From positions 109,541 through 173,540 of the forward strand of contig JAMXCW010000002.1 in NCBI GenBank assembly GCA_024451685.1: a stretch of DNA of 64,000 bases, given 5' to 3'. The translations under genes and the position numbers were made by a program. This document shows, one piece after another, positions 6,943 through 57,375 of this stretch. The stretch is from Candidatus Bathyanammoxibius amoris (GTDB lineage Bacteria; Planctomycetota; Brocadiia; Brocadiales; Bathyanammoxibiaceae). The notes under the pieces were generated by a model that did no database searches, was not told the origin of the DNA, and saw nothing but the letters and a program-made list of their open reading frames with translations. The number at the start of each line of letters is the position of its first letter. Position 1 is the first letter of the stretch.

Positions 6943-7395
6943 ATGAGTCAGACTGAATTAATCATTTTATTTACGATAGGTCTTGCGGCCGTATTTGCAG
7001 AGATACTTATTCCTGGTATGATTGTGGGTATCTGCGGGGCCATCTGCATGCTGGCGAGCATCTACTGGGCCTATCAGGCGGGCGCGACCAACCTGGGACA
7101 TATTATGGTCGGCGTCAGCATAATATCCGTTCCCATTTTTGTCTTGCTATGGTATAGACTGGCCTCAAGGACCTTTGTCGTAACCGCCTCTGAGGCGGAT
7201 TTCAACCCGCCCGGCGAGTTTGGCAGGTTCCTGGGCGAAGAAGGCGTAGCAGTAACAAGCCTGCATCCCACGGGCATCGCCAGCGTAGACGGCAAGAGGG
7301 TAGACGTGGTAACCCGCGGTGAAATGGTCTCAAAGAATACGAGGATTAAGATAATAGACGTACAGGGAAACAGGGTTATAGTTAAATCCATTTAA
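6943..7395 (+). CDS. NfeD-family protein, short form (membrane anchor plus OB-fold)
   Basis: The 150-aa ORF has two or three N-terminal TM helices. Its C-terminal motif GIASVDGKRVDVVTRGEMV...IIDVQGNRVIVKSI is paralogous to the C-terminus of the 4800-6272 protein. Confidence 0.75.
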   Translation: MSQTELIILFTIGLAAVFAEILIPGMIVGICGAICMLASIYWAYQAGATNLGHIMVGVSIISVPIFVLLWYRLASRTFVVTASEADFNPPGEFGRFLGEEGVAVTSLHPTGIASVDGKRVDVVTRGEMVSKNTRIKIIDVQGNRVIVKSI

Positions 7396-7466
7396 CCAAC
7401 GCCTCCCCATGCACTGTTCTAGAGGGCAAAAATGGCAGGGGCGAAAGCCGGTAGGAAGGTAGAATA

Positions 7467-8492
7467 ATGGAACAATTACCTTTTGTGATACCAAAACAAT
7501 TTGCCGTGATAGGAGTGTTGTTTGGCGGGCTGATACTTCTCATCCTGCTCCTTATGTTGTTTAAGTACGGATGGCTGTACATCCAGGCCCTTGCGTCGGG
7601 TGCGCCCGTGTCGCTGATACAATTGGTCGGTATGACCCTCAGGAGGGTTAGAGCGCGGGTGGTGGTGGAGTCGAGGATAATGGCCAAGAAGGCCGGCATT
7701 GAGATAGACACCCAGCTCATTGAGGCCCACTACCTGGCCGGAGGCAACGTGATAAACGTCGTATGCTCGCTGATAGCCGCCAACAAGGCCAATATAGACC
7801 TTACCTTCAAGCAGGCCTGCGCCATTGACCTCGCGGGCCGTGACGTGCTGGAGGCGGTAAGGACAAGCGTCAACCCCAGGGTCATTGACTGCCCCGACCC
7901 CAAAAGGGGGCGGCAGACCATAGACGCCGTGGCCAAGGACGGTATACAGCTCAAGGTGAAGGCCCGCGTAACGGTTCGGGCCCACATGTCCCGGCTGGTC
8001 GGAGGCGCTACGGAAGAGACCGTTATCGCGCGCTGTGGAGAAGGCATCGTATCTACCATCGGCTCGGCGGAGAGCCACAAGAGGGTGCTTGAGAACCCGG
8101 ACCTCATCTCAAAGTCGGTACTGGAAAAGGGGCTCGACGCGGGGACGGCGTTTGAGATACTTTCCATTGATATTGCCGACGTAGATGTTGGAGTGAACAT
8201 AGGCGCAAAGCTTCAGGGGGACCAGGCCGAGGCTGACAAGCGCGTGGCGCAGGCCGAAGCGGAGAAGCGCAGGGCCATGGCCGTGGCACGCGAGCAGGAG
8301 ATGGTGGCACTGGTCTCGGAAAATCGCGCCAAGGTGGTGCTTGCCGAGGCCGAGATACCAAAGGCAATCTCCCAGGCGTTCAGGGAAGGCAACCTGGGGG
8401 TAATGGACTACTATCAACTCAGGAACATACAGGCCGATACTGATATGAGAAAGTCCATCTCAAAGTCTTCGGATGACACGTCTCAGGCGTAA
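7467..8492 (+). CDS. floA: Flotillin-like protein FloA (UPF0365/YqfA family)
   Basis: The 341-aa ORF is near-colinear with B. subtilis FloA as I remember it. Shared motifs include [57 protein letters not shown] and [11 protein letters not shown]. Confidence 0.92.
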
Positions 8493-39598: not shown

Positions 39599-40081
39599 CT
39601 ACCTTTTTTTCGCCTTTTTCTTAACCTTTTTTGTAACTTCCTTCTTGACCTTTTTTTTGACCTTGGGTCGTATTTTTTTGCTGGCCTTTTTCTTTTTCTT
39701 TTTCTTCGGCACCAACGGAGTCTTTACTACACCTTCTATCAGCTTCAGCGACGACTCTTTCTCCAACGGCTGAGTCAGGACCCCATGAGCACCGGATCTC
39801 AACAGGGAAGCCTGGTGGCGTTTGGACCTCTGGGACGTAATCATCACGACCTTGATATCCGGGTCAAGCTCCTTGAGCTTCTTAAGGATATCAAGACCGC
39901 TGACCTCGTGCACTTCCTCGCCTACAACGGCCAGGTCCATCTTTCTCTCTTCGACGATACTAAAGCCCACCGGGACGGCGAGGGCAACCTCCGTCTCATA
40001 ACCATAGAACTCCAGGTTGTCCCTGAGCTCATCCACCGTCTGGCGTTCATCTTCTATTATAAGTATCCGTGTAACGGCCAT
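39599..40081 (-). CDS. Single-domain response regulator (receiver) with lysine-rich C-terminal tail
   Basis: ILIIEDE...DLAVV...KVVMITS fits a CheY-like receiver. The last roughly 40 residues are about 60 percent Lys (KKKKKKKASKKIRPKVKKKVKKEVTKKVKKKAKKR). The start is moved to ATG 40081. Confidence 0.75.
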   Translation of the reverse strand: MAVTRILIIEDERQTVDELRDNLEFYGYETEVALAVPVGFSIVEERKMDLAVVGEEVHEVSGLDILKKLKELDPDIKVVMITSQRSKRHQASLLRSGAHGVLTQPLEKESSLKLIEGVVKTPLVPKKKKKKKASKKIRPKVKKKVKKEVTKKVKKKAKKR

Positions 40082-40314
40082 TTGCCTTAAACGAAGCCCC
40101 CCGGTACCCCCTTTACTTAAGTCTATTCTTCTATAACTTTTCCTCCCATTCGTCCAGCAAATATTTAAAATTTTTTGCCGCGTGTCGCTCCGCTGCCATT
40201 CCAGACACCCACGTAACATTAGTCGGAATAAAAGGTTAGGGTGTTTGGCGGTGGCGCTTTCCTACGTTCTGCCGAATATACATCCACCTTCAATCGAGGT
40301 TTTTTATTCGTTCT

Positions 40315-41139: not shown

Positions 41140-41496
41140 TGGTGGAGGCGGCGGGAATTGAACCCGCGTCCCAATGCACATCGGTAAAGGTTTCTACATG
41201 CTTAGTCTATCTTTTTAAGAAATCTCGCCGTACTGCGGACCCCGGTAGACAGGGTTCCGCGACAGCCAGCCTGATAATTTTCTCACCCAGTCTCCTCAGG
41301 TAAAAAGTCCGGGCCAGCCTGTTAGCTGTCATCCTTGGGTCCTACAGGCAGGACCCGGAGGAAGGGCTACTTTTATGCAGCCATTGCCATTTGATAATCG
41401 GCACTTGTTGTTTGCGCCAGGTGTTTAATGAGGCCTCCTGACAACCTCAGCATGCTGCCTGTTACCTCCGTAACACGGTCGATTCCATTCGCCCCC
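41140..41496 (-). ncRNA. ssrA: tmRNA (SsrA)
   Basis: On the minus strand the 5' end is GGGGGCGAATGGAATCGAC and the 3' end is GGTTCAATTCCCGCCGCCTCCACCA, a tRNA-Ala-like acceptor with a G3:U pair. An internal tag reading frame, GCG CAA ACA ACA AGT GCC GAT TAT CAA ATG GCA ATG GCT GCA TAA, lies at 41417-41373. smpB is adjacent. Confidence 0.88.
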
Positions 41497-41588: not shown

Positions 41589-42032
41589 TTAGCGTTTCAT
41601 GGCCCTTTGGATATCGCGCTCGGTCTCGCGCTTTCGGATGGCCTCGCGCTTGTCGTGGACCCGCCTGCCCTTTGCCAGGGCGACCTCCACCTTGGCGATT
41701 CCGCGCCTGTTAAAGTAGAGCGTTACGGGCACCAGCGCGTAGCCCTTCTCGTTCATCTTGCCGATAATCTTGGATATCTCGGTCTTATTGAGAAGGAGCT
41801 TGCGCGGACGCTTCGGCTCGTGGCCCTGGAGACCCGCCTGCTGGTACTGGCCTATGTGGAGGTTATAGAGATACACCTCCCGGCCCCTTACCTGCGCGAA
41901 GGCCTCGTTCAGGCTCGCGTCCTTATTCCTCAGGCTCTTTACTTCGCTACCCTTCAACACAAGCCCGGCCTCGTATTTATCCATCAACTCATACTTGAAA
42001 CGGGCCTGCCTGTTAGTGGCTATTATGTCCAT
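41589..42032 (-). CDS. smpB: SsrA-binding protein SmpB
   Basis: The 147-aa ORF has NRQARFKYEL, GSEVKSLR and a basic C-terminal tail. Confidence 0.93.
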   Translation of the reverse strand: MDIIATNRQARFKYELMDKYEAGLVLKGSEVKSLRNKDASLNEAFAQVRGREVYLYNLHIGQYQQAGLQGHEPKRPRKLLLNKTEISKIIGKMNEKGYALVPVTLYFNRRGIAKVEVALAKGRRVHDKREAIRKRETERDIQRAMKR

Positions 42033-42132: not shown

Positions 42133-45100
42133 TCACGCCTTAACGAGCTTGACCCTGGTGCTGAAGAACGCGGAACTGCCGCCTATGGGGTCGGTGAGGC
42201 AAACGTCCTTAAGATACGGGTCTAGGCGCATGACGGCGTTCGGGCACAGCCCCTTCGTGCGGCGCTCATCTCCCTTCACGACCTCTCCGTCAATTACCGT
42301 ATCCGCCGCTCCGTATGCCCAGTGGCCGAAGTGCCAGCTGACGTTGACCACGCCCGGCTTCAGGCCCTCGGTCAGCTTGACCTTGCCCTCAGTGTACTTC
42401 TTCTGCCCCGCCGGTCCTATATGCCACGCGCCGCTCGTGTTTGTCGCAGACACAATGCGCACCACGTCTCCAGCCTTTACCCCAATTGCCTCCGCGTCCA
42501 CGGGGTTAAGCTCGACGTGGTTCTCGGGCCAGATCTGGCTCAGCCAGTAGTCGTTGGGCAGCGTCCTGGACTGCCCGCCCAGAATGCCCTTATACGTAAT
42601 CAGCGTGAACGGATATATCTCATCCCCGATCTTCCCGCCGTCACACGCCGTCGAGGGTGCATGTCCGGGCGTTCCTGAAAAATATTCACCGGTCATTGAA
42701 TCCCTGCCATTGGCCACGGGTTCCACGTAAAGGTTAACATGGCTGGAGAAGGTGTGGGCCAGCCTGTTACCCTTATACGCCCCGTCAAAGTTTTGAAACC
42801 TCCCTCCCCGCGATAGTATATACGCCACCATCTTCCAGTATTTCGCGCCAACCGTCCGTTCCCACCGTTTCACATCGAACACGCTCCCCGGCAGGTGGCG
42901 GAGTGACTTTTCATACGACTCAATTTCGGCGGGGTTTGCCTCCGGGACCTTATCCTTTTGCTTATCACCCCACGCAACGTTTGCCACCATGCGGAGATAA
43001 TAGTCCTCAAAATGTTCAAACGGCTCTCTCTGCCTGAACCCGTTCTCGCCGTAACCGGGAAGACCCATCTTCTCGGCTATCTTGAGCATTACCGTCTCCA
43101 TGCATATGGGCATATCCCTGTCAAACACCTCAACCGTCTCTGGGATGGGGGCCACGGCGGGCTGGCGGAGCTTGCTGGTCTTTGTCTGTACGTCGGGCGT
43201 TACGTGCGGCAGGCCCCATCGCTCCCATATACTGGTATCCGGAAATACGTAATCGGCAAACACGGTGGAGTCGCCTATTACTATATCGGTGCTTATAAGG
43301 AGCGGGACCTTTTCCAAGTTCCGCAGTGCCGCGAGCTGGCTGTTGGCCCCGGGGGTGGACAGACCCGGAGTGGCCATGTGCATCCAGACCACCTTTGCGC
43401 CGTACGGATACTGACTCACGGCCGAGGGCAGGACCTCCTGGTACACGTTGCTGGTAAACGGATACCACGGCCGTTTTGCCGGGTAGCCGGCAAAGAGCGT
43501 GGATTTTTCGTATGAAGACTCCTCGCGTGTCAGTTTGTGGCCGAAGGGGTGAATCTTTCCCGGATGCAGCGCCTTTTTGAGCGGGAACGGTTGACCTGTC
43601 TTATCTCCGGCCTCATGCCAGTGGCCGCCGCCCTTGCCGAGACCGCCCTTCCAGTCCAGGTTCCCGATGAGCACGTTGAGCGCTATAATCGCCTGTGCAT
43701 TGTAATACCCGTTCGTATGCTGAACGGCCCCCCTGTAAAACTCCGCCGCGGCCTTCTTACCGTGAGACGTGAACTCGCGCGCGACCTCAAAAATGTCTTC
43801 CTTTTTTATGTGGGTAATTGCGGCGTATTCGTCGAAGGTCCTGCTGAACGCGGATTCCTTCAGCAACTGGAGGGCCGTCTTGACGGCTACACCTTTTACC
43901 ATACCGTCCACAAACAGGTCGCCGAAGACGGGCTCGTTGTTCGAGTCGATTTCCATGGCCTCCGGCACGCCGCCGGAAAGCGCGACAAACTCGTTTTCCT
44001 TGCCGATGCCTATTTCCAAGGCCCGCAGGTATTTGGTCGGACGTCCGTCCTCAATCTTAACGAGCAAGCTCGCGGTACTCCATGAGGTCTCGCCGCTGTC
44101 AACCGCCGCCTTGCGGGTGGTATTTCGGAGGAAATTTTTGTCGTACCGGTCATTTTCAATAATCCAGCGAACCATCGCCAGCGCCAGCGCCCCGTCCGTG
44201 CCGGGTTTTATGGGCAGCCACTTCCATGCCTTGGCCGCGCCATTACTGAAGCGCGGGTCTACCACTACCGTCTTGAGCCGTCCGGAAATAATACCGGCCG
44301 TGACCTTCCTCGCGGCAGGCGGGGGGCCAAAACCCGCCTCAAGCCCGCCGGTGGTGCCGAAGTAGATAATGAATTCACTGTTCAGGGTGTCCGGCTTCAT
44401 GTGGGTCTTGCCGCCCTTCCACTTTCCAGCCTTGAATTTGCCGGTCATCTGCTTGTAGGCTATGTGGTGGGACTGCTCGCATATGGACGTGTGCTCGTAC
44501 CAGTTTATCGAACCAAAGCTCTGGCGCAGCCACCTCTGGCTGAACTCCTTTCTGCCGTGCTCGATGCGTCCCGCCAAAAACACAAACTGGTTGTTCCTGG
44601 GCCCAAGGTCAGGGTGTTCAGGGTCTATAAGGGTGTCCAGGTGTTCCTTATGTCTCTTCTTATACCCCGCGACAGACAACTCTCCGGAGGCCACCCTCAT
44701 GGCGTCCGCCGCCATCCACAAGGAAGTCTGGCCGTCCTTCAGGGCGAAAAGGTCTTTTAGTCCCGGAACGGCCCTCTCTTCTTCTCCCTCTACCTGTTCA
44801 AAAAGTTTGCCGCCGTTAACGATTTCGTCTATCGCCTGCTCAAAATCTATGGTGACCCATTTGTTCTCTCCCCGTCGTCCAGCACGCTTCAGCACCTTGC
44901 GTATCCTGTACGGGTCATAAAGGGACTGAATCCCGGCCTGGCCCTTCGGGCAGATATAGCCGTCCAGTTGACCTACGGCGAGGGGACTGTTCTCATACGG
45001 AATATGCGGCAGCATTGACTGGGGTGAGTAGGGATTCCCGTTTATGTTGACCAGTATGCCGTCTATTACGCTCACCTTTATCGGGCAAGCCGTGTGACAC

Positions 45101-45303
45101 TGCAGACAGGTTGAATAGACGATGTTCTCAGGCTTCGCCATCGGGTATCCCTGCGCGGTCCCAAGCCACGACCATGAGGCGTGCGCGGTCTCCACCCTGG
45201 CCGCCTGGTAGGCCAGAAGGGCACCCGTACCCAGCAAGGCTCCCGCCTTAATAAAATCCCGGCGATTAAACCTGTTGACGTCACTTTTGGAAGTTTTCTT
45301 CAT
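42133..45303 (-). CDS. Tat-exported molybdopterin oxidoreductase catalytic subunit, tetrathionate reductase TtrA-like
   Basis: The Tat signal is NRRDFIKAGALLGTGALLA...AHA. The N-terminal FeS motif is CLQCHTACPIKV...CPKGQAG. The stretch GNPYSPQS...SLYDPYRIRKVLKRAGRRGENKWVTIDFEQAIDEIVNGGKLF parallels Salmonella TtrA as I recall it. The ATG at 45303 overlaps the upstream stop (ATGA). Confidence 0.85.
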   Translation of the reverse strand: MKKTSKSDVNRFNRRDFIKAGALLGTGALLAYQAARVETAHASWSWLGTAQGYPMAKPENIVYSTCLQCHTACPIKVSVIDGILVNINGNPYSPQSMLPHIPYENSPLAVGQLDGYICPKGQAGIQSLYDPYRIRKVLKRAGRRGENKWVTIDFEQAIDEIVNGGKLFEQVEGEEERAVPGLKDLFALKDGQTSLWMAADAMRVASGELSVAGYKKRHKEHLDTLIDPEHPDLGPRNNQFVFLAGRIEHGRKEFSQRWLRQSFGSINWYEHTSICEQSHHIAYKQMTGKFKAGKWKGGKTHMKPDTLNSEFIIYFGTTGGLEAGFGPPPAARKVTAGIISGRLKTVVVDPRFSNGAAKAWKWLPIKPGTDGALALAMVRWIIENDRYDKNFLRNTTRKAAVDSGETSWSTASLLVKIEDGRPTKYLRALEIGIGKENEFVALSGGVPEAMEIDSNNEPVFGDLFVDGMVKGVAVKTALQLLKESAFSRTFDEYAAITHIKKEDIFEVAREFTSHGKKAAAEFYRGAVQHTNGYYNAQAIIALNVLIGNLDWKGGLGKGGGHWHEAGDKTGQPFPLKKALHPGKIHPFGHKLTREESSYEKSTLFAGYPAKRPWYPFTSNVYQEVLPSAVSQYPYGAKVVWMHMATPGLSTPGANSQLAALRNLEKVPLLISTDIVIGDSTVFADYVFPDTSIWERWGLPHVTPDVQTKTSKLRQPAVAPIPETVEVFDRDMPICMETVMLKIAEKMGLPGYGENGFRQREPFEHFEDYYLRMVANVAWGDKQKDKVPEANPAEIESYEKSLRHLPGSVFDVKRWERTVGAKYWKMVAYILSRGGRFQNFDGAYKGNRLAHTFSSHVNLYVEPVANGRDSMTGEYFSGTPGHAPSTACDGGKIGDEIYPFTLITYKGILGGQSRTLPNDYWLSQIWPENHVELNPVDAEAIGVKAGDVVRIVSATNTSGAWHIGPAGQKKYTEGKVKLTEGLKPGVVNVSWHFGHWAYGAADTVIDGEVVKGDERRTKGLCPNAVMRLDPYLKDVCLTDPIGGSSAFFSTRVKLVKA

Positions 45304-46289
45304 TTCAGATTCATACCCGTATGGCAGGGCGTACACGAACTAAGACCCGGCAGCACGTCAGGCACTTCCGTGGCGATATAGACCACATTAGGGTCCGTAC
45401 CGAGAACGTCCTTCATTTTAGCCACCTGATGCGCGCGCATTAGTTCCGACACAAGGCTGTTGGTGTCGTTTCCATCCCCAAAATACATGGCCCCGCCTAT
45501 ACACGTGGTAACACACGCGGGAAGCATCCCGTTTCTCAGCCGGTGGAGGCAGAAGTCACACTTTCTCGGCTTCCCGACAAGGTCCTCGCGCTTTTCGGGA
45601 GACCCATACTGATAGTTATCCACCTCTTCATACGGCTGGGGGGGAGCGTCCGTACCTTCGACACCCCCAACACCTTGTGTAAAATAAGACCCGTCGTCAT
45701 AAAATATAGTATTCTCGTACGGGCAGGCTTCTATGACCGCGTCCACCTCCGCCTTGTCCCTGAACTTTTTGAGGTTAACCGTAACGATGCCGTCGGGCCG
45801 CTTCTCCAGCCCTCCCTCCGGCGCGGCCTCGACACAGGGCGGGTTATTACACTGCATACAGTTACTCGGCATGAAGGTCCTGGTGACGTCGGGGAAGGTT
45901 CCATACTCCGCAGTAAAGACCTTTCGCAGGGTCACACCCGGAGGTGAAACGTTTTCTGAGATGCAGGCCACCTCGCAGGCGTAGCAGCCGATACACTGGT
46001 TTACATTTATGACCATCTTCCACCGCAGGTCTTCGATAGGTCTCTTGATGGCATATCTGAGGTCATCGTACATCCGCGTCAGCGTGCCCTGGCCCGGCGG
46101 AACGTTTTTCGGGAGAAGCAACTCCGGTGCGGCGACCTTCGGGTTCCCCGCCTCCCCGGTTTTCTTAGGGGTCTTGAACGCGGTTTTCTTCTTCTCAATG
46201 CACCCGCCCAGCACTCCCAGGGACATGCCCGCGATGCCGGCCTTCAAGAAGTCCCTGCGGCCTAATTTGTTTGTCTTTTTACCACGCAT
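45300..46289 (-). CDS. Tat-exported 4x[4Fe-4S] ferredoxin-type subunit (TtrB/PsrB-like), possible lipoprotein
   Basis: The Tat motif GRRDFLKAG is followed by the h-region AGMSLGVLGG and a Cys (lipobox-like LGGC). The Cys clusters are CIGCYACEVAC, CMQCNNPPC and CDFCLHR...CVTTC. Confidence 0.85.
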   Translation of the reverse strand: MRGKKTNKLGRRDFLKAGIAGMSLGVLGGCIEKKKTAFKTPKKTGEAGNPKVAAPELLLPKNVPPGQGTLTRMYDDLRYAIKRPIEDLRWKMVINVNQCIGCYACEVACISENVSPPGVTLRKVFTAEYGTFPDVTRTFMPSNCMQCNNPPCVEAAPEGGLEKRPDGIVTVNLKKFRDKAEVDAVIEACPYENTIFYDDGSYFTQGVGGVEGTDAPPQPYEEVDNYQYGSPEKREDLVGKPRKCDFCLHRLRNGMLPACVTTCIGGAMYFGDGNDTNSLVSELMRAHQVAKMKDVLGTDPNVVYIATEVPDVLPGLSSCTPCHTGMNLK

Positions 46290-46462
46290 ATATTTTCAGA
46301 CTTCTTAGTGTCGTTAGACAGAAGAAACGTAATATATCTATAAACGCACCATACATTTAACTTACAAATCATACCATCACCGCATTCAAAAATCAAATTC
46401 GTCAAACATTTTTAATTCTTTGTTTGACTACGCTTACGTCACTGCCTAAAATCTCACTTGAT

Positions 46463-46549
46463 GCCGAAGTGGCGGAACTGGCAGACGCGCTAGGTTCAGG
46501 ACCTAGTGGACGCAAGTCCATCGGGGTTCGACTCCCCGCTTCGGCACCA
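46463..46549 (+). tRNA. tRNA-Leu (anticodon CAG), type II, CCA encoded
   Basis: The acceptor stem is GCCGAAG/CTTCGGC. The anticodon stem-loop is CTAGG-TTCAGGA-CCTAG. The variable arm is TGGACGCAAGTCCAT and the T arm is CGGGG-TTCGACT-CCCCG. Confidence 0.9.
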
Positions 46550-46612: not shown

Positions 46613-46957
46613 ATGAAAAGTTTCTATCTGATAACCCTCATATGTATTCTAGGTTTAGGCCTGCCGGGTACGGGGTGTACCTCCAGCAAGACGGCAAAGG
46701 GTGCCGGAATAGGTATGGGGGCAGGTGCAGCCACCGGTGCGGCAATCGGCGCGGCCTTCGGTGCGCCCGGTATAGGTGCCGCCATCGGTGCAGGCGCCGG
46801 TAGTGTGGTAGGCGCTGTGACCAGCAAAATAATGCAAAAAAAAGAGAAGGACGAAGAAGAGAAAAAGGAAATAAAAAAGCAGCTTGATGACGTCGAGGCC
46901 AGAATGAAGCTTGGAACTCCCGCACAGACCGGCGAACCCGAAAAACCCCCTGAATAG
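46613..46957 (+). CDS. Glycine-zipper lipoprotein with acidic/basic C-terminal tail
   Basis: The signal peptide has a lipobox (LPGTGC). It is followed by GxxxG-type glycine-zipper repeats (GAGIGMGAGAATGAAIGAAFGAPGIGAAIGAGAG). Confidence 0.65.
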   Translation: MKSFYLITLICILGLGLPGTGCTSSKTAKGAGIGMGAGAATGAAIGAAFGAPGIGAAIGAGAGSVVGAVTSKIMQKKEKDEEEKKEIKKQLDDVEARMKLGTPAQTGEPEKPPE

Positions 46958-47036: not shown

Positions 47037-47711
47037 TTATTGCGGTTTTACCTTAAATATCAGGAAATAGTGCTGCCGTAAGAACGGGTGGTAACGGACC
47101 GTGTAGTAGCCCGCTTCTTCCGCAGCAATCTCCACGTCGTTCCGCGCTACCCTTTCATCCATGGGGGGGCCAAAATCCGATTCCCTATCTTTCCGCCAAT
47201 CTATGATAACCAACATGCCACCGGGCTTTAGCGAACGGCTTATACTCTTTAAAAGCGCTGCCGGGTTCTCCACCTCATGGTAGACGTTCCCCATAAACGC
47301 CAGATCCAGCGAGCCCTCAGGGAAGCCGGGGTCATCGGGTTTGCCCAGCACTACCTTAATGTTCTCTATTCCCTCTTCTTTTATCTTTTCTGCCGTATAG
47401 TCCACCATCTCCTGCTGTATGTCCTCGGCGTAGACAATGCCGTTTTCTCCAACCCAGTCAGAAAAGTACAGGGCGAAGTACCCGGCGCCGGTACCTATGT
47501 CGGCCACAACATAGCCGTGCTCTATGTCCAGAAACTCCATAATCTGTTCGGGCTTCTGCCATTCCCTGGGTTCCTCAAGTTCCTCAATCCTCTCGGGAGG
47601 GAAAATCTTGCTCTTTTTCTTTACCTCAGCCTCTTGTGCATAGGCAATGAAAGTCATGCTTAACACAACCACACAGAAACACACGACATTAACGATAGAC
47701 AGTACCTTCAT
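47037..47711 (-). CDS. Class I SAM-dependent methyltransferase with N-terminal signal peptide/anchor
   Basis: MKVLSIVNVVCFCVVVLSMTFIAYAQ is followed by motif I, VVADIGTGAGYFA. A GGAGG RBS precedes ATG 47711. Confidence 0.75.
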   Translation of the reverse strand: MKVLSIVNVVCFCVVVLSMTFIAYAQEAEVKKKSKIFPPERIEELEEPREWQKPEQIMEFLDIEHGYVVADIGTGAGYFALYFSDWVGENGIVYAEDIQQEMVDYTAEKIKEEGIENIKVVLGKPDDPGFPEGSLDLAFMGNVYHEVENPAALLKSISRSLKPGGMLVIIDWRKDRESDFGPPMDERVARNDVEIAAEEAGYYTVRYHPFLRQHYFLIFKVKPQ

Positions 47712-47886
47712 CACCATTCCTCCCCAGGCCCAAGGCCCATTTCCCATATTATCTAAGAATTATCCGGCCAAAATGGGGTCCAAACTCGACCTTTACCCCT
47801 TCATAAACTACGTAATATATCAATATTTGCCATTTTTTAAAGACAAAAATAGTGAGAAAACCATAAAAAAAGGACACCGTTTCAGA

Positions 47887-49839: not shown

Positions 49840-50469
49840 TTATTGGACAGGGAAGGTCATGCTTATACCTCCCTTTAGCTCTCCAAGCTTGTAGTTTTCC
49901 ATGTAACTGCCAGTTATGTCTTTCCCGTCACCTGTGGGGCTGTTCGAGGGGTCGCCGTGACACTTTAGGCATTGCTCATTCATGTAGAGGGGGTGGAAGT
50001 AGCGGTAAACTATCTCCTTTGGCCTCTCGTCTACCCTGCTGTATTCTCCAAAACCTGCGTCAGCTCGAAGTCCCTGCCCCTTGAATTTACTGATTTGGAC
50101 CTGCTCCCATTCATCAGCCAGGTTATCCGGGTTTCTGATGCCATACTCGTCTTTCCCTACATCAACGAACTTGATCCTAACTCCTGACCTTTTTGTAAAG
50201 TCCTTGCTAATGGTTATGGCGAAGTTGACGGGGTTAATGCCCTTGTAGCTGTAAGGTTCATCTTCGGGGACAGGCATGCCGAGTTTTGCATTGTGCGTGT
50301 CAATAACATCCATATTCTCGGCTATCAGAACGCTTGAAACGGTCAACATGTTTATAATATGTTTGGCTATTTTGTTGAAGTCATAAACCTGTGCAAAACA
50401 GTCTCCGACAGGAAATATTGTCAGAGTATACATTAACACTACAACTGCGATTTTCTGTAGGGATTTCAT
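49840..50469 (-). CDS. Secreted monoheme c-type protein, DUF3365 (Tll0287-like) family, paralog 1
   Basis: There is a signal peptide and a single CLKCHGDP heme motif in the context YRYFHPLYMNEQCLKCHGDPSNSPTGDGKD.TG. The ATG at 50469 overlaps the upstream stop (ATGA). Confidence 0.7.
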   Translation of the reverse strand: MKSLQKIAVVVLMYTLTIFPVGDCFAQVYDFNKIAKHIINMLTVSSVLIAENMDVIDTHNAKLGMPVPEDEPYSYKGINPVNFAITISKDFTKRSGVRIKFVDVGKDEYGIRNPDNLADEWEQVQISKFKGQGLRADAGFGEYSRVDERPKEIVYRYFHPLYMNEQCLKCHGDPSNSPTGDGKDITGSYMENYKLGELKGGISMTFPVQ

Positions 50470-51140
50470 TTCCGTTCTCCCTCCTCTTCCTTGGCCAGCC
50501 ATGTTTCATCCACAGGGAACGCAAGGCTTATGGCACCACGAAGTTCTCCCAGCTTGTAGTCTTCCATCTCAAAGCCAGTCAAGTCTTTACCGTCCCCAGT
50601 GGGGCTTGCTGCAGGGTCACCATGACATTTTAGGCAACGGTCCTCTATGTACAGGGGGTATATATAGCGGTAGACCATCTTGTTTAGCTCCGCACCGCCC
50701 ACCAGCTCTATCTCTCCGTAGCCTACCCCCTTGGGGTATCTTACCTTAGAAAATTTCTCCAGTTGCTTGTTCTCCCACTTGTCCGGTTTATTGTACATAT
50801 TCCTTGGGCCGCATTTACCCTTTCCATTCGAGACGAATTTTGTCGATATCCCAGTCATCCTGGCAAACTCTATCGCTATCAAGGTGGCAAATCCCTCGGG
50901 ATTAATCCCCTTGTAGCTAGTGAGTTCACCTTCGGGGATTGGTTCTCCAACCTTTGCGTTGTGGGTATTTATCACCTCGAAGTTATCCGCAATAAAGTCT
51001 GTCGTCGCGTTCATCATGTTTACGATGGAGCTTGACACCCTTTCGTAGTCATATACTTGAGCCCTGCCGTCTTCGGCAAAGAAAAGGCTCAGTGCCGTGA
51101 AGGCTAATACGAACTTAATTTTCCTCACTGCATCTTTCAT
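50466..51140 (-). CDS. Secreted monoheme c-type protein, DUF3365 (Tll0287-like) family, paralog 2
   Basis: The signal peptide is MKDAVRKIKFVLAFTALSLFFA. The heme context is YRYIYPLYIEDRCLKCHGDPAASPTGDGKDLTG. A GGAGG RBS precedes ATG 51140. The ORF is colinear with paralog 1. Confidence 0.7.
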   Translation of the reverse strand: MKDAVRKIKFVLAFTALSLFFAEDGRAQVYDYERVSSSIVNMMNATTDFIADNFEVINTHNAKVGEPIPEGELTSYKGINPEGFATLIAIEFARMTGISTKFVSNGKGKCGPRNMYNKPDKWENKQLEKFSKVRYPKGVGYGEIELVGGAELNKMVYRYIYPLYIEDRCLKCHGDPAASPTGDGKDLTGFEMEDYKLGELRGAISLAFPVDETWLAKEEEGERK

Positions 51141-51372
51141 GGCATGTCCTCCGTCTGCCTTAATGAGTATTTTGCTGTGTGGCTTCCAAGACCATCCCAG
51201 CCGCCTTCTCCATGCCCTCTTGTGAATGCTGTTTTGAGCCCCGATTCTCCCGGCATCTTTCTTGCAATGTGGGTCTTGATACACCCCGGTCTTACTACAA
51301 AAAGCATCTTATAAAATACTAACGGACCACAAATAAATCCGTAGACTACTACTGTTCCCGTTTCTGAAAGAA

Positions 51373-52051: not shown

Positions 52052-53665
52052 CTATTTCTCCTCCAGGGCCTTGAGCCTTCTGAGCCTATTGGCCTCATCC
52101 TGGATACGAGCCAGTGAACCAATCATGTGCGACCAGCCATACCACCAGGAATAATCCTGCTGGGCATGGGCTGTACCCTTATAACCCTTGAGCTTGTACC
52201 AGAACCACATTTCCGCGTACTCCCTCTCTATGGCACTGGGAGTGCCGGGTCTGGTGATGAAGACACTATAGACCCCAAGAATGGGGCCTATTACAGGGAC
52301 ACGCCCCTCCAGATCCTTGAAGGCCTTGTAGACACCCATCCCTAACTTATCCGGGCCCAGGGCATCGGCCAGTACGTCTCCCATAGGGAAGACAGGCCTG
52401 TCTTTAGGAGCAGGGTTAAGCAGGCCCTCAGCAACGACCTGATCAAGTATCAGCTGGGCTTCGTCCTGCTTCTTGAAACACAGGAACATGTACTGATCCA
52501 TGTTTTCCAGCCACAGTCGCGCAAAGCGGCTGCTGTGACACCTGCCGCACATCTCTATCCACAGCTCCCGCTTCTGGAGATTCTCCGGGGAATATACCTC
52601 CAGTTTCGCATCCAAAGGAGGGATATTAATCCCGTAGGGGTAGTCCTTGAGGCTGGACTTATACTCTACCTCCTTCGGGGGTACGGTGCCCATGCGCCAG
52701 ATGCCCTTGCTAATGGGATTAATCGTCCATTTATTACCCCCCATATACATGTGGCAATACTGACAGGTGGGACTCTTATAGTCCTTTCCAGGGATGATGT
52801 CCCCCAGGGGCTTGTCCCAGGGCCAATGTTCACCCTCCAGCTCATAAATAGTGCCCATCTTAGAATGGCTGTAGGTCTCCCAATCGGGATGGTCAGGTCC
52901 CATGTGACAACTCATGCAGGCCTCCGGTCTCCTGCCCTCAGCGGCTGAGAAGCTGTGCCTGGTGTGGCATGTGTCACACCTGGCCATTTCCTCATGACAC
53001 ATGTCACAGCCTATCAGAGAGGCGCCTTCTCCCTGACGATATGACTCTATATACCAGGGCACCACCACGTTGGCCTCCCAGCTCTGGAGATGGCTGGGCC
53101 GACCGTACTTTCTCTCAGAGGCATACTCCTCTGCCTGCTTCAAGTGGCACTCACCACAGGCATTATCCACGGTGGGCATCTGCAGCACATCGTGGCTCTT
53201 GCCGTGGCAACCAGAACAGTCTACCTCTTTTATCTCCCGACCCAGGCGTTTTTCTATCTCCGCGGTCTTTGCGGCGAAATATTCATTCCTCTTGGGCTGG
53301 GCATGGGTGGAGGCCTTCCAGGAGTTGACTATCCCAGGTGTGATATCGGCGTGGCACTCCACACACTGATCGGGTTGAAATTTTTTCATCAACTCTGGAA
53401 ACATCTTGATGTCTGGCCGTACGTAGTGTCTTAAAGGATTCATATACATGTAGAGAGGTATGGGCTTGTAGGCATCGGCAAAGGGACCATCCCCCTTTTC
53501 CAGGTACACTGCCTCTGCGAACATTTTCTGAAGCTCTGGTGTGGGATAGGCCCAGGACTTCTTGGCTACCTTCTCCTCAGGGGCCTTTTCGTCGGCGGCT
53601 CGGGCCTGACCCGGCCCTAGTAAAATAACTGCCGTGGCCAACGCTATGATAAATGGTAATCTCAT
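52052..53665 (-). CDS. Octaheme cytochrome c, hydroxylamine oxidoreductase (HAO)-like
   Basis: The signal peptide is MRLPFIIALATAVILLGPGQARA. There are eight CxxCH motifs: CVECH, CSGCH, CGECH, CDMCH, CDTCH, CMSCH, CQYCH and CGRCH. Their spacing, including the CDMCHEEMARCDTCH doublet, is typical of the HAO family. Confidence 0.88.
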   Translation of the reverse strand: MRLPFIIALATAVILLGPGQARAADEKAPEEKVAKKSWAYPTPELQKMFAEAVYLEKGDGPFADAYKPIPLYMYMNPLRHYVRPDIKMFPELMKKFQPDQCVECHADITPGIVNSWKASTHAQPKRNEYFAAKTAEIEKRLGREIKEVDCSGCHGKSHDVLQMPTVDNACGECHLKQAEEYASERKYGRPSHLQSWEANVVVPWYIESYRQGEGASLIGCDMCHEEMARCDTCHTRHSFSAAEGRRPEACMSCHMGPDHPDWETYSHSKMGTIYELEGEHWPWDKPLGDIIPGKDYKSPTCQYCHMYMGGNKWTINPISKGIWRMGTVPPKEVEYKSSLKDYPYGINIPPLDAKLEVYSPENLQKRELWIEMCGRCHSSRFARLWLENMDQYMFLCFKKQDEAQLILDQVVAEGLLNPAPKDRPVFPMGDVLADALGPDKLGMGVYKAFKDLEGRVPVIGPILGVYSVFITRPGTPSAIEREYAEMWFWYKLKGYKGTAHAQQDYSWWYGWSHMIGSLARIQDEANRLRRLKALEEK

Positions 53666-53772
53666 AAACGCCTCCCTCCTTAACAAAGTTTCTACTACTG
53701 CTTAACCTCCCTGGGTACTGGAGGTCTTGGCCTGAAGGTTTCGTAGTCTCTTGTAACACTCTCGCTTGGGTT

Positions 53773-55290
53773 TTAAGGAATAGCTTCTCCTTCCTGCTGT
53801 GGGGACTTTTCATCCAGGGGCATGGCCTCCTGCCCCACAGCCTCCTGGGCTGGGGGGAAGGCCTCTCCTTCAACGATTACCAGTTTAGTTTCCCGGATGA
53901 TCTCGTCTTCCGAGAAAGAAGTAGCTTCTCCTTCCTGCTGTGGGGACTTTTCATCCAGGGGCATGGCCTCCTGTCCCGCAGCCTCCTGGGCCGGGGGTGG
54001 GGCCTCTCCTTCAACGATTACCAGTTTAGTTTCCCGGATAATCTCGTCTTCCGAGAAAGAAGTAGCTTCTCCTTCCTGCTGTGGGGACTTTTCATCCAGG
54101 GGCACGGCCTCCTGTCCCACCGCCTCCTGGACCGGGGAGAAGGCCTCTCCTTCAACGATTACCAATTTAGTTTCCCGGATGATCTCATCTTCCGAGAGCG
54201 GGGATGTCCCGGCAGACCCCCCAAATACAGGCACCTGCACGCTAACAGGTATTACCTCTTCCTGAGAGGTTTCTTTCTGCGGTAAGGCCTGTGTCACCGG
54301 GCCTTCGGATTGAATCTTGGCGAGGGGTTCAGCCCTCAGCTCGTGGTGTCTGGCCATATGGCATTTACCGCAGACGTCATAGCTAAAACCTAGTTTGCTG
54401 AGCCTACCAGCCTCGTCCACCTTTCCCTGACTCATAAAATAGACGTAAAGCTGTCCGGGCCCGTGACAGGCCTCACAGGTGACACCTTCCTCTACATATT
54501 CGCCGGTCTCTTCATCGTACCCGGTGGTATGGCACTCGTAGCACTTCTTTCTGTACTCCTCATCACCTTGTATAAAGTCTTTTGCTTTTTTGACCCGTTC
54601 CATGGTGACAAACTTGTTGTCCTTCCAGCGGTCGATGTGCCAGGTGGTGAGGCCCTTGTGACACCTGACGCAGGCAGTGCTGCCCACGTAGACCGCCTTC
54701 TCGCCGGTTATGCTGTAATACTTGTAATCTGAGGCTTCCTGGCCCTCCTTGGGGGAAAGTTCGGCCAATCCCTTCCACAACTCCAGCACGGCATCAGCGG
54801 TGTCTATCCTGCCAATCATTTCTTTCCTGCTGGCATATAAGTGCTCATGGGCCCCCTCCAGTCGGAGGGATTCGCCCTGGCCACCGTGGCAGACCGTACA
54901 GCCGTAAATGTCGTAAGGTAAATAATCAAACGTCTTGGGGTGCAGTTCTTCTAATTTGTCCACATCTACATGACAGGTCATACACCTGTCCACCTTCTCT
55001 CCGTTTTCCCCATCCTTCCAACGTCCGCTGCCTTTAAGGAGTAACTGTTTTACCCCCACGGGGGGGTTTTTTAGGGCCGCAATCCTCTGTTTCAGCTTTT
55101 CTGCCATGACAGGATCCCCCCATTTAGGGTCGGACCACCTCTCCAGCTCGTGCTCTAGCCTGTCCACCTGTTCGGCATAAGCGACCTTCTGATAGCCCAC
55201 CCACTCGGGGTAGACTTCCCTGACAACCCAGAGGACAAGCAGGCCCAGCAAGACCACTGATAAGACAACAAAAGGTATCCTCCACAACAT
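53773..55290 (-). CDS. Membrane-anchored hexaheme cytochrome c with repetitive acidic C-terminal extension
   Basis: There is an N-terminal TM helix and six CxxCH motifs (CMTCH, CTVCH, CVRCH, CYECH, CEACH, CGKCH). The C-terminal roughly 140 aa are three 47-aa repeats. Confidence 0.85.
   Translation of the reverse strand: MLWRIPFVVLSVVLLGLLVLWVVREVYPEWVGYQKVAYAEQVDRLEHELERWSDPKWGDPVMAEKLKQRIAALKNPPVGVKQLLLKGSGRWKDGENGEKVDRCMTCHVDVDKLEELHPKTFDYLPYDIYGCTVCHGGQGESLRLEGAHEHLYASRKEMIGRIDTADAVLELWKGLAELSPKEGQEASDYKYYSITGEKAVYVGSTACVRCHKGLTTWHIDRWKDNKFVTMERVKKAKDFIQGDEEYRKKCYECHTTGYDEETGEYVEEGVTCEACHGPGQLYVYFMSQGKVDEAGRLSKLGFSYDVCGKCHMARHHELRAEPLAKIQSEGPVTQALPQKETSQEEVIPVSVQVPVFGGSAGTSPLSEDEIIRETKLVIVEGEAFSPVQEAVGQEAVPLDEKSPQQEGEATSFSEDEIIRETKLVIVEGEAPPPAQEAAGQEAMPLDEKSPQQEGEATSFSEDEIIRETKLVIVEGEAFPPAQEAVGQEAMPLDEKSPQQEGEAIP
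53776..54195 (-). repeat. In-frame tandem repeat, 3 x 141 bp (47 aa), inside the hexaheme cytochrome gene
   Basis: The unit is SEDEIIRETKLVIVEGEA(F/P)(S/P)P(V/A)QEA(V/A)GQEA(V/M)PLDEKSPQQEGEATSF. The unit boundaries are 54195/54054/53913/53776. The DNA copies are nearly identical. Confidence 0.9.
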
Positions 55291-55301
55291 TCCACTCTAC
55301 C

Positions 55302-56078
55302 TCATATGTTAAACCAGGGGGTTACCAGTACGTATTTGACATTAAAGACGACCCTCAATAATATCTTTATGGGCACAAATAGCATGGCGGCAAATAGATT
55401 CATTGTAATGAAGTATCGTATAAGACCCAGTTTGAAGAAAAACTTAGGGAAGAGGATGGCCGGGAGTATAAGCATCAGAGCACCGTAACATACCAAAAAG
55501 GCTATGCCCGCAGGAAGGGGGAAACTGCCCAGCGCCTGCTCCATGGGTTTGATAACATCCCAGCTTTCCCCCGGCCAATAAAAGTTCCAGAATGGGCCCC
55601 GGAAATACTGACCCACTATCACCAAGACAAACCACATAGTAAAGCCCCCAATGAAACAGGCCGAGGCAAACTTTCTCGTCCTCACGTTATAGCGGCCCAC
55701 CCCCTTTATGGGGTCAGGGTCGATGTAGGGTATGAGAGCCAGGCCAACAAGGATGACAGTAGGCAGTACCACTCCTGCCATCCAGGGGTCAAAATACACC
55801 AGCAGTTCCTGCAGGCCCACGAAATACCAGGGTGCCTTGGCCAACTTGGGGGTCTCATTAGGATTGGCCAGCTCCTCCAGAGGGGCATTTTGTAGCAGGC
55901 TCCAGGCCACGACCACTATGGAGGCCGCCAGCACGGCTATGAGTTCCCTCTTTACCAGGTGGGGCCAGGTGTCTACCTTTTCTTCTTTCGGATAGACATC
56001 ACGCTGCCTGAGCAGGAGGTCCTCTCTTACCACGGTGATGAGTCTAATCTTTTCTTTGTTTTCTGTTTTCTCTACCAT
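55302..56078 (-). CDS. Cytochrome b C-terminal half (subunit IV / PetD-like) with extra C-terminal TM helices
   Basis: The Qo-loop region ETPKLAKAPWYFVGLQELL aligns to the PEWYF region of subunit IV. There are about six or seven predicted TM helices. Confidence 0.85.
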   Translation of the reverse strand: MVEKTENKEKIRLITVVREDLLLRQRDVYPKEEKVDTWPHLVKRELIAVLAASIVVVAWSLLQNAPLEELANPNETPKLAKAPWYFVGLQELLVYFDPWMAGVVLPTVILVGLALIPYIDPDPIKGVGRYNVRTRKFASACFIGGFTMWFVLVIVGQYFRGPFWNFYWPGESWDVIKPMEQALGSFPLPAGIAFLVCYGALMLILPAILFPKFFFKLGLIRYFITMNLFAAMLFVPIKILLRVVFNVKYVLVTPWFNI

Positions 56079-56090
56079 TTGTCTAATACA

Positions 56091-56825
56091 CTATAAAGGC
56101 CTGGAAATGCCTCCGGACTTTCTGATTCTCCAGAAGTGAACGGCCATTAATCCCACTGCGACCCCTGGCAGGCCCACACAGTGGGCAAAGTAAAAGCGAA
56201 TCAGGGTGGGCTGATCTATTGCGGTGCCGCCCAATATAATAAAATGGATATCCTGTTCAGGGCCAAGGATGCTAAAAGGGCCTTTAGCGCCCAAGACGGG
56301 GGTGTTTTCCCCCATTGTAGCTCCTACTGTCACTGCCCAGAAAGACAACTGGTCCCAGGGCAGTAAATAGCCCGAAAAACTAAGCAATAAGGTTATCACA
56401 AGCAGGCCCACCCCGATGACCCAGTTAAACTCTCTAGGTGGTTTATAAGAGCTGGTCAAAAATACCCTTAGCATGTGCAGAGGCACAATGAGGACCATCA
56501 GGTGAGCTGCCCAGCGGTGGAGGTTCCTCTGAAAGGAGCCGAAGGGTACTATATAGTCTATGTCCTTCATGCTGGAATAGGCCTTATCCACATGGGGCAC
56601 ATAATAAAGCATCAGAAACGCGCCGGTTATGGCCGTGACTATAAAGAAGAAGAGAGCGAACCCACCCAGGCAGAAGGTGTAAGTAAACTTTATGCCGTCC
56701 TTGCTCACCCGGGCTGGTTGGATATGAAGGACAAAATTCGATATCACACGGAAGACCCGGTGGAGGTGACTATCAGAAGTCCCGGTCCTGAATACAGACC
56801 TCCACATCTGGGTGAATATATTCAT
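56091..56825 (-). CDS. Cytochrome b6-type N-terminal half (PetB-like)
   Basis: The heme ligand pairs are HRWAAHLMVLIVPLH (H-x13-H) and HCVGLPGVAVGLMAVH (H-x14-H). The FCLGG motif corresponds to the heme ci Cys of b6. Confidence 0.9.
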   Translation of the reverse strand: MNIFTQMWRSVFRTGTSDSHLHRVFRVISNFVLHIQPARVSKDGIKFTYTFCLGGFALFFFIVTAITGAFLMLYYVPHVDKAYSSMKDIDYIVPFGSFQRNLHRWAAHLMVLIVPLHMLRVFLTSSYKPPREFNWVIGVGLLVITLLLSFSGYLLPWDQLSFWAVTVGATMGENTPVLGAKGPFSILGPEQDIHFIILGGTAIDQPTLIRFYFAHCVGLPGVAVGLMAVHFWRIRKSGGISRPL

Positions 56826-56848
56826 CTCTCTCCTCTTAAAAAGAATCG

Positions 56849-57370
56849 CTAGGCACGCAGGAAGTAGTCTATATTCACTTTCTTGCCCTCATCAACCTCC
56901 AACCGTCCATCTTTGGCCACGGTAATCTCCAGGCGCTCCAAGGGTTTGGGGGCCGGGCCAGCAAAGTTTACCCCGTTCTTGTAAAAACGGCTGCCATGGC
57001 AGGGGCATTTGAAGATCTGCTGGCCTTCATACCATACCGGCTGGCAACCTAGATGGGTACATATGGCCAGGAGGGCATAAAAGCCCTTATCTCCCCGTAT
57101 TATCCAGACCTTTCGGCCGGTCACCAGGTTCACCGAGCCCTTTGCGTACTGCTCAGGCCTCTTGGCCTTAAAAATCTTAGAGGGCTCGTAAGTGGCCCTG
57201 GGGTAGAGGAACCGTACCAGCGTTGCCCCTGTAACACTGAGTATGACAAGAAGTAGCCCCCAGCCACTCCACCAGAGCGCAGTCCACATAGCCTGTCGTC
57301 TGGCGGGCTTCTTAACCCCCGTGGGTATAGCTTCCTCTGCATTTGTCTTAGACTTAACCATCACATACAA
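56849..57370 (-). CDS. Rieske [2Fe-2S] protein
   Basis: The cluster motifs CTHLGC and CPCHGS are present. The N-terminal RR-containing TM anchor is KKPARRQAMWTALWWSGWGLLLVIL. Confidence 0.9.
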   Translation of the reverse strand: MYVMVKSKTNAEEAIPTGVKKPARRQAMWTALWWSGWGLLLVILSVTGATLVRFLYPRATYEPSKIFKAKRPEQYAKGSVNLVTGRKVWIIRGDKGFYALLAICTHLGCQPVWYEGQQIFKCPCHGSRFYKNGVNFAGPAPKPLERLEITVAKDGRLEVDEGKKVNIDYFLRA

Positions 57371-57375
57371 CCTCT

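Follow-up and report, generated by a model that had tools for sequence, protein, structure and literature searches.

The tetrathionate reductases TtrBCA of Salmonella enterica and Shewanella sp. ANA-3 combine a large catalytic subunit (about 1020-1060 aa), which holds a Cys-ligated molybdenum-bis(pyranopterin guanine dinucleotide) (Mo-bisPGD) center and the FS0 cluster, with a four-cluster iron-sulfur (FeS) subunit and a nine-helix NrfD-type membrane subunit, TtrC, whose gene lies between ttrB and ttrA. In PsrABC of Thermus thermophilus (2vpw), encoded in the order ABC, a menaquinol site in the membrane subunit PsrC is located next to the distal FeS cluster. The arsenate reductase ArrAB of Shewanella sp. 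ANA-3 (6cz7) is a soluble periplasmic two-subunit enzyme that has no dedicated membrane subunit and is fed by the c-type cytochrome CymA. Ttr-like arsenate reductases are represented by Melioribacter roseus MROS_1074-1076, the proteins of Anaeromyxobacter sp. PSR-1 (WP_059435911.1) and Geobacter sp. OR-1 (WP_041969781.1), and Pyrobaculum aerophilum PAE1265. Here we describe a TtrBA-like locus of Candidatus Bathyanammoxibius amoris (Brocadiales) in a 64-kb stretch of contig JAMXCW010000002.1 (assembly GCA_024451685.1, positions 109,541 to 173,540; hereafter the window, to which positions refer unless another locus is named). Its FeS subunit gene (B) is followed directly by the gene for the catalytic subunit (A), with no gene for a membrane subunit (C), and the B subunit has lost one of its four clusters and carries a C-terminal CxxCH motif.

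The B gene (45300-46289, minus strand) is an open reading frame (ORF) for a 329-aa ferredoxin-type electron-transfer subunit with three clusters. The A gene (42133-45303, minus strand; ATG at 45303, stop at 42133) encodes a Ttr-like Mo-bisPGD subunit of 1056 aa, and a longer alternative GTG start is open at 45336. The stop codon of B overlaps the start codon of A in the sequence ATGA at 45300-45303, and no gene lies between them; the ORFs and the translational coupling are as given in the preliminary description of this locus. That description also assigned a twin-arginine signal to each protein, and we find the same. B begins with MRGKKTNKLGRRDFLKAGIAGMSLGVLGGC, containing RRDFLK, and A begins with MKKTSKSDVNRFNRRDFIKAG...VETAHA, containing RRDFIK. 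The twin-arginine signal peptide of A (NRRDFIKAG ... AHA; 45178-45303, minus strand) includes R14 and R15, which are invariant in the A alignment, and that of B (GRRDFLK; 46200-46289, minus strand) ends in a lipobox, LGVLGG-C30, recognized in the sequence by a PROSITE PS51257-type regular expression. Pfam assigned Molybdop_Fe4S4 (PF04879), Molybdopterin (PF00384), and Molydop_binding (PF01568) to A and Fer4_11 to B (E 4e-23).

The order B before A, the twin-arginine translocation (Tat) leaders on both subunits, and the large Cys-ligated A with FS0 are all features of TtrBCA, and TtrA (NF011567) was the best NCBIfam match for A. The score of 510.5 bits, however, lies far below the equivalog cut-off of 1750, and the ArrA model was matched at 124.8 bits against a cut-off of 1600. 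For B, the scores were 110.6 bits with TtrB (NF011569; cut-off 416) and 124.3 bits with ArrB (cut-off 450). By these scores, A is a Ttr-like protein that is neither a TtrA nor an ArrA equivalog. The closest homologues of A (75-78% identity) are from Candidatus Brocadiales and Planctomycetota metagenome-assembled genomes (MAGs), and the wider family at 51-60% identity is very large and multi-phylum, including Calditrichota, Bacteroidota, Ignavibacteria, Nitrospirota, Desulfobacterota, Chloroflexota, and Methylomirabilales. Among solved structures, PsrABC provides the best sequence match for both A and B and has the same overall fold in both subunits.

The preliminary description had noted that no NrfD/TtrC/PsrC-type gene follows A and that smpB comes next. 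This absence extends over the whole window, as a tblastn search of the 64 kb with the NrfD-family C subunit of a related B-C-A locus gave no match at E <= 1e-3. We compared the locus with related loci from one-genome-per-species contigs, together with three from metagenome look-ups, typing each by tblastn. A B gene was present in 80 loci, 43 of which are of the B-A type and 37 of the B-C-A type, with B-A loci spread over many phyla; Deferrisoma camini and Geothermobacter hydrogeniphilus are B-A hosts available in culture. In the B-A loci, A stands directly after B (gap of -36 to +151 nt). In the B-C-A loci, the two are separated by a gene of ~415 aa with 9-10 predicted membrane helices, to which Pfam assigned NrfD in 32 of the 37 cases (those with an intact clustered C ORF); the NrfD assignment was made in none of the B-A loci. 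The lack of the membrane subunit is a property of a sub-family and not an accident of assembly.

These counts bear on the possibility that we are dealing with a canonical, membrane-bound tetrathionate reductase, its ttrC gene located elsewhere in the genome or missing through misassembly. Tat signals are present on both subunits of Salmonella Ttr as well (PMC12949373), TtrA is the best family match, and a missing ttrC has been attributed elsewhere to contig ends (bioRxiv 10.1101/2020.10.01.322446). The B-A genes, however, are 42 kb and 18 kb from the ends of the window, between tRNA-Leu and smpB, in a region free of NrfD homologues, and the synteny is kept in a B-A-type relative (L002), which also has the order B-A-smpB. 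Both the TtrA and TtrB equivalog cut-offs are missed, and the 43 independent B-A loci share a B subunit devoid of the cluster that would be needed to reach C. Because these loci have no C and their B no cluster facing it, a TtrC encoded elsewhere is very unlikely, and we regard the canonical enzyme as largely refuted. The earlier proposal that the complex has no quinol-oxidizing membrane subunit is strongly supported.

The loss of this cluster was apparent in an alignment of B subunits from 43 B-A and 36 B-C-A loci. All 36 B-C-A sequences possess 16 cluster Cys residues, and the B subunit of the window retains 12, with the other four sites occupied by A156, F176, V182, and V185. These four columns, which correspond to Cys 4 of group II and Cys 1-3 of group III, contain Cys in 0-21% of the 43 B-A sequences versus 100% of the 36 B-C-A sequences; the other 12 Cys are kept. 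The best structural matches of B are ArrB (6cz7_B), which ranks first, and PsrB (2vpw_B), and alignments to both reveal the remnant of the distal [4Fe-4S] site at residues 156-189 (45722-45823, minus strand), with VEAAP in place of VxxCP and KKFRDKAEVDAVIEAC in place of CxxCxxCxxxC. Compared with PsrB, CVPVCP...KKCIACGACIAACPY has been replaced by CVEAAP...KKFRDKAEVDAVIEACPY. The group-III cluster is FS4 in DmsB (studied with C102 variants) and in NarH (a [3Fe-4S] cluster), where it adjoins the membrane subunit and the quinol site; the cluster lost here is therefore the one that faces the membrane subunit. In PsrABC that cluster lies beside the menaquinol site of PsrC, whereas both the cluster and the subunit are absent from the B-A enzyme.

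In a neighbor-joining tree built from 82 A subunits, the B-A and B-C-A types remained mixed and the deep branches were star-like, a point against the model given below. Because the A tree offers so little at depth, we relied on the tree of B subunits. With 225 core columns and the C-terminal tail left out, the B-A and B-C-A sequences were reciprocally monophyletic, and the rebuilt B thus probably arose once. The anchor-less form is a coherent sub-family, and it probably had a single origin. Within it, the second Cys of the first cluster motif (alignment column 107; C102 in the window, where Cys is kept) is replaced by Asp in 15 of the 43 B-A sequences; this suggests that the proximal cluster of some members is Asp-ligated or of the [3Fe-4S] type.

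A C-terminal extension ending in (S/T)CxxCH was found in 43/43 B subunits of B-A loci and in 0/37 of B-C-A loci, which end instead in ...GTxPxVYYL; gain of the motif and loss of the cluster both correlate perfectly with C being absent. The window version, C319-T-P-C322-H323 (45321-45335, minus strand), is a putative covalent heme c site. The C-x-x-C-H spacing was invariant in 107/107 tails, and 0-1 residue followed the motif in 82 of these 107. The best 120 database homologues of B fell into three classes: 75 three-cluster proteins with the CxxCH tail, 29 four-cluster proteins without a tail, and 16 three-cluster proteins in which the tail keeps the His but has lost both Cys (...AAAYHT, ...IAGFHA, ...LCKSQHP; e.g., P0146, P0150, P0165, and P0190). 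A Met residue four positions before the first Cys of the now-terminal cluster (M140 in the window) was present in 65/75 of the tail-type and 14/16 of the His-only sequences and in 0/29 of the four-cluster sequences. A profile search of 1.8 billion representatives placed the tail in only about five 50%-identity clusters and found none on Arr- or Psr-type B subunits. A search of the literature for a described CxxCH motif on TtrB-like subunits returned nothing relevant. One tail-type B is from a Methanosarcinales MAG, and Methanosarcinales are an archaeal lineage that makes cytochromes c. In an AlphaFold2 model of B built from a 60-sequence alignment (mean predicted local distance difference test score, pLDDT, of 84), the tail was ordered (pLDDT of 93, 88, and 81 over residues 301-329), with a short helix leading into C319.

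The simplest reading of a CxxCH that is invariant in an exported redox protein is a covalent heme c site, and the His-only variants together with the class-specific Met fit His/Met ligation of a heme at the position of the former distal cluster. The window encodes multiheme cytochromes, so the host matures c-type hemes. The preliminary description had suggested that electrons come from cytochromes c rather than quinol without noticing the motif, which now backs that suggestion. The genomic setting of a His-only locus (L085, 12-7949), in which genes for c7-type and NrfB-like multiheme cytochromes and an MtrB/PioB porin surround the B-A pair, is consistent with electron exchange with cytochromes of the periplasm. 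The CxxCH-type loci, unlike L085, seldom have adjoining cytochrome genes.

Several points speak against a heme on the tail. CxxCH is a motif only, from which the heme is predicted. In nature, c-type cytochromes normally travel through Sec and are matured unfolded, and we know of no natural precedent for CxxCH on a folded, Tat-exported FeS protein. Many B subunits of the B-A type lack a signal peptide of their own and must therefore cross the Tat system folded together with A; an exposed C-terminal tail could still receive heme after export. A serious rival, which we nevertheless consider unlikely, is that the tail has a non-heme role as another metal center in place of the lost cluster, a redox-active disulfide, or a docking peptide, with electrons entering straight from a partner protein at the exposed third cluster. 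A folded Tat substrate would be an unusual client of cytochrome c maturation, the sister class that keeps only the His implies that the thioether Cys are dispensable in some relatives, and the tail is ordered in the AlphaFold2 model without any cofactor. The exact spacing in every tail argues the other way, as do the poor suitability of adjacent Cys and His as co-ligands of one cubane and the absence of a conserved fourth Cys partner from the B alignment. The His-only variants and the class-specific Met likewise suit His/Met heme ligation better than an FeS site.

The signal peptide of B was proposed early on to be that of a lipoprotein, and at the level of sequence pattern this proposal holds. 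The segment fits the PS51257-type rule, with a positive n-region, an uncharged h-region, and VLGG-C30. Among full-length homologues in the Brocadiales clade, the Cys is kept in 11/11 and the lipobox is canonical in 9/11 (10/12 with the window sequence included), compared with 0/41 Tat-bearing, tail-type B homologues outside the clade. Cys30 is followed by a Lys/Pro-rich linker (residues 31 to about 85; 46035-46199, minus strand) that precedes the FeS core; most other B-A loci encode shorter B subunits (243-261 aa) without it. AlphaFold2 gave pLDDT values of 40-56 for residues 21-60, which comprise the hydrophobic core of the signal and the first 30 residues of the linker, consistent with disorder, and a value of 96 from residue 71. 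The disordered Lys/Pro-rich stretch looks like a lipoprotein tether in this model, and the pattern supports B being a Tat-exported lipoprotein. AioAB provides a partial parallel: the Tat signal of the small subunit tethers the enzyme, which has no quinone-reactive subunit, exchanges electrons with soluble cytochrome c in the periplasm, and is under AioXSR control. Its Mo subunit nevertheless belongs to a distant clade, and its small subunit is a Rieske protein with no heme motif rather than a polyferredoxin.

In the catalytic subunit, the FS0 [4Fe-4S] motif, C66-x2-C69-x3-C73 ... C118 (44950-45108, minus strand), has four Cys that are invariant in 41 B-A and 37 B-C-A sequences. The active-site segment (44464-44571, minus strand), delimited by alignment to ArrA, contains G245-R246, H271, T272, the Mo ligand C275, and H280; its columns are invariant or nearly so family-wide, and the GR pair and the motif EHTSIC275EQSHH are invariant. 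A phmmer alignment to Shewanella ArrA (6cz7) places LAGRIEH on LRGRYSH and HTSICEQSH on HSSVCAEAH. G245-R246 thereby corresponds to the Gly-Arg165 pair of ArrA, H271 to H189, T272 to S190, and C275 to the Mo ligand C193. The positions of R165, H189, and C193 are thus conserved in A. According to a 2026 study of Ttr from Shewanella ANA-3 (PMC12949373), the Gly-Arg pair is shared by Arr, Arx, and Ttr-like As(V) reductases, whereas true TtrA lacks it. The presence of the pair distinguishes this locus from TtrBCA, as do the absence of TtrC and a B subunit with three clusters rather than four, a CxxCH tail, and a lipobox. ArrAB resembles the B-A enzyme in being a two-subunit complex with no membrane partner, yet the gene order is arrAB, ArrB has four clusters and neither a Tat signal nor CxxCH, and ArrA is shorter (about 850 aa).

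The gene contexts of relatives also point to arsenic. The B-A locus of Deferrisoma camini lies directly behind genes for a Phosphonate-bd protein, a sensor kinase, and a sigma54-type regulator, organized like AioXSR, and adjoins genes for Acr3, ArsD, ArsA, and a low-molecular-weight phosphatase. Among loci with at least 4 kb of upstream sequence, X and S genes were found upstream in 13-16 of 28 B-A loci and 11-12 of 25 B-C-A loci. Acr3, ArsR, or ArsA was encoded within 10 kb in 10/43 B-A versus 1/37 B-C-A loci. In 15 loci, belonging to both types, an OprO/P-like porin gene stood directly upstream of B; the porin-like protein has a signal peptide, and the similarity is weak (PF07396 at 22 bits for L003, 7955-9178, and E = 0.11 for L045, 6729-7754). 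Arsenate induces the B-C-A enzyme of Melioribacter roseus, whose gene context is similar (PMC5492636), and arsenate reduction has been reported for Ttr homologues from Anaeromyxobacter PSR-1 and Geobacter OR-1 (PMC11462812). Like these enzymes, A branches with Ttr and carries the GR motif, and its relatives share AioXSR/'ArrTSR'-like regulators and ars neighbors. Loci from Melioribacteraceae MAGs fall within the same A family (52-53% identity, in a family spanning 50-60%). MROS_1074-1076 differs from our locus in being B-C-A with an NrfD-type anchor; in the window, the anchor is missing, B is remodelled, and no arsenic genes are nearby. The preliminary description had held that the substrate could not be read from the sequence. 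That view was too cautious to the extent that arsenate is indicated by the Gly-Arg motif and by the genes that surround related loci, and it stands to the extent that this indication carries no more than moderate confidence. We consider arsenate, reduced to arsenite, to be the most likely substrate, with about an even chance of being correct.

Other observations weigh against arsenate. Neither the window locus nor its four closest relatives have ars, X/S/R, or porin genes nearby. Of six arsenate-contacting positions in ArrA, two differ outright in A (Y166 is I247 and Y210 is H301), and K198 is replaced by His (H280). The PSR-1 and OR-1 proteins, which are not among the close homologues of A, were absent from its best 120 homologues and are probably less than about 57% identical; a search with a Geothermobacter A subunit as query also gave no Geobacter OR-1 or Anaeromyxobacter protein. 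Ten related loci have rhodanese genes in the vicinity, a hint that some members use sulfur substrates.

An enzyme of the same architecture acting on tetrathionate, thiosulfate, polysulfide, selenate, or antimonate is accordingly a plausible alternative, although we do not favor it. TtrA is the best NCBIfam match, the rhodanese genes and the absence of arsenic genes from the window locus agree with it, and the TtrA/SrdA/alternative-Arr family is catalytically versatile (PMC10100899). In sulfur-disproportionating bacteria, Ttr homologues increase in abundance, among them one mentioned in passing as 'lacking TtrC' (PMC9751629, PMC13490349). Against such substrates, A possesses an invariant GR motif, which true TtrA is reported to lack, and scores 510 bits with the TtrA model, for which the cut-off is 1750; the recurrent neighbors are AioXSR-type regulators, Acr3/ArsR, and OprO/P-like porins.

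Those same regulators raise the possibility of catalysis in the oxidative direction, by an Arx-like arsenite oxidase or another oxidase whose electrons would pass from the tail heme to the cytochrome c pool and a terminal reductase. The sigma54-type X/S/R trio upstream of B-A genes resembles AioXSR/ArxXSR, which control arsenite oxidases; coupling to cytochrome c without a quinone site resembles AioAB; and the hosts include Methylomirabilales, Ectothiorhodospiraceae, and Brocadiales. Most B-A hosts, however, are sulfate, sulfur, or iron reducers, the adjoining ars efflux genes suit arsenite as the product, and the related Melioribacter enzyme is induced during arsenate respiration. We judge the oxidative direction to be rather improbable.

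Returning to arsenate reduction, the observations can be combined into a working model. The Tat system would export the A-B complex to the periplasm or, in an anammox host, to the lumen of the anammoxosome, and heme c would then be attached covalently to the tail of B, with H323 as one axial ligand and M140 possibly the other. This heme would serve as the electron entry point in place of the lost distal cluster and subunit C, accepting electrons from periplasmic or membrane-bound c-type cytochromes that are reduced by a quinol dehydrogenase encoded elsewhere. Electrons would pass through the three [4Fe-4S] clusters of B and FS0 of A to the Mo center with its C275 ligand. In the Brocadiales clade, B would have gained a lipobox-bearing Tat signal of its own and, behind it, ~55 residues of flexible linker, such that the complex is probably tethered to the membrane by lipid and not by a protein subunit. 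Taken as a whole, with a heme-tailed three-cluster B in place of C, a lipid tether, and arsenate as substrate, this explanation seems to us somewhat better than an even bet. No donor gene is linked to the B-A operon. A possible source of reduced cytochrome c is a Rieske/cytochrome b-type gene cluster ~6 kb away on the same strand (52052-59316, minus strand), which encodes an NAD(P)/FAD-FeS subunit (646 aa), a Rieske protein, a split cytochrome b (244 + 258 aa), a hexaheme cytochrome (505 aa), and an octaheme cytochrome (PF13447; 544 aa). In composition it resembles an anammox-type Rieske/cytochrome b complex, and it is a candidate for quinol oxidation. Between this cluster and the B-A operon are genes for two adjoining Tll0287-like proteins (PF11845) with one CxxCH each (49840-51284, minus strand).

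The remaining features of the region are as follows. Downstream of A are smpB (41589-42032, minus strand; PF01668) and, beyond it, a transfer-messenger RNA gene (tmRNA; 41140-41469, minus strand) with the tag peptide ADYQMAMAA. Upstream of B is a tRNA-Leu gene (46463-46549, plus strand). A promoter-like sequence, TTGATT-17-TATGAT with a TG element (46368-46396, minus strand), lies ~80 nt upstream of the B start; it is weak evidence, as the counts of consensus promoters and terminators in the region were not above shuffled expectation. An Rfam scan upstream of B found no molybdenum cofactor (Moco) riboswitch and no other element. Divergent from the operon is a gene for a small glycine-zipper protein (46613-46957, plus strand) with a classical Sec-type lipoprotein signal (...GLGLPGTGC), which suggests that the host makes lipoproteins. 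A 236-aa UbiE/PCMT-type methyltransferase with an N-terminal hydrophobic segment (47037-47747, minus strand; counterpart in L002 at 7113-7787) is a conserved upstream neighbor of the B-A genes in four Brocadiales-clade loci; we set it aside as an ArsM-like partner after a Deferrisoma ArsM-like seed found no homology. On the other side of the operon, a response-regulator receiver (39599-40219, minus strand) ends in a very lysine-rich tail of ~40 residues (KKKKKKKASKKIRPKVKKKVKKEVTKKVKKKAKKR) and has no recognized output domain. Among related loci, L080 (2961-3578) and 9 others (8 of them B-A) have, directly after A, a gene for an FmdE-like protein (PF02663) that carries a DksA/TraR-type zinc finger; they are mostly Nitrospirota B-A loci, often with Moco biosynthesis and molybdate transport genes beside the FmdE-like gene, and the window contains no such gene.

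Arsenate respiration in soils and hot springs is now traced with Ttr-like molybdoenzymes as markers, and 'TtrAB without TtrC' has been seen repeatedly, being ascribed to contig ends or left unexplained. We tentatively propose that the B-A type is a previously undescribed wiring of a molybdoenzyme, in which a tail heme on a Tat-exported polyferredoxin would replace both the distal cluster and the NrfD-type subunit. Such a protein would be a natural Tat-dependent c-type cytochrome that is matured folded, and the Brocadiales module may in addition be a Tat lipoprotein. The proposal raises for cytochrome c biogenesis the question of whether the tail of a Tat substrate that is already folded can receive a heme. 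The bioenergetics of the B-A type differ from those of the B-C-A type, since an enzyme without a quinol site makes no redox-loop contribution of its own. The CxxCH tail and the four missing Cys provide a signature by which the two types can be told apart in metagenomes, and the window locus places a possible arsenic-transforming enzyme in the Brocadiales.

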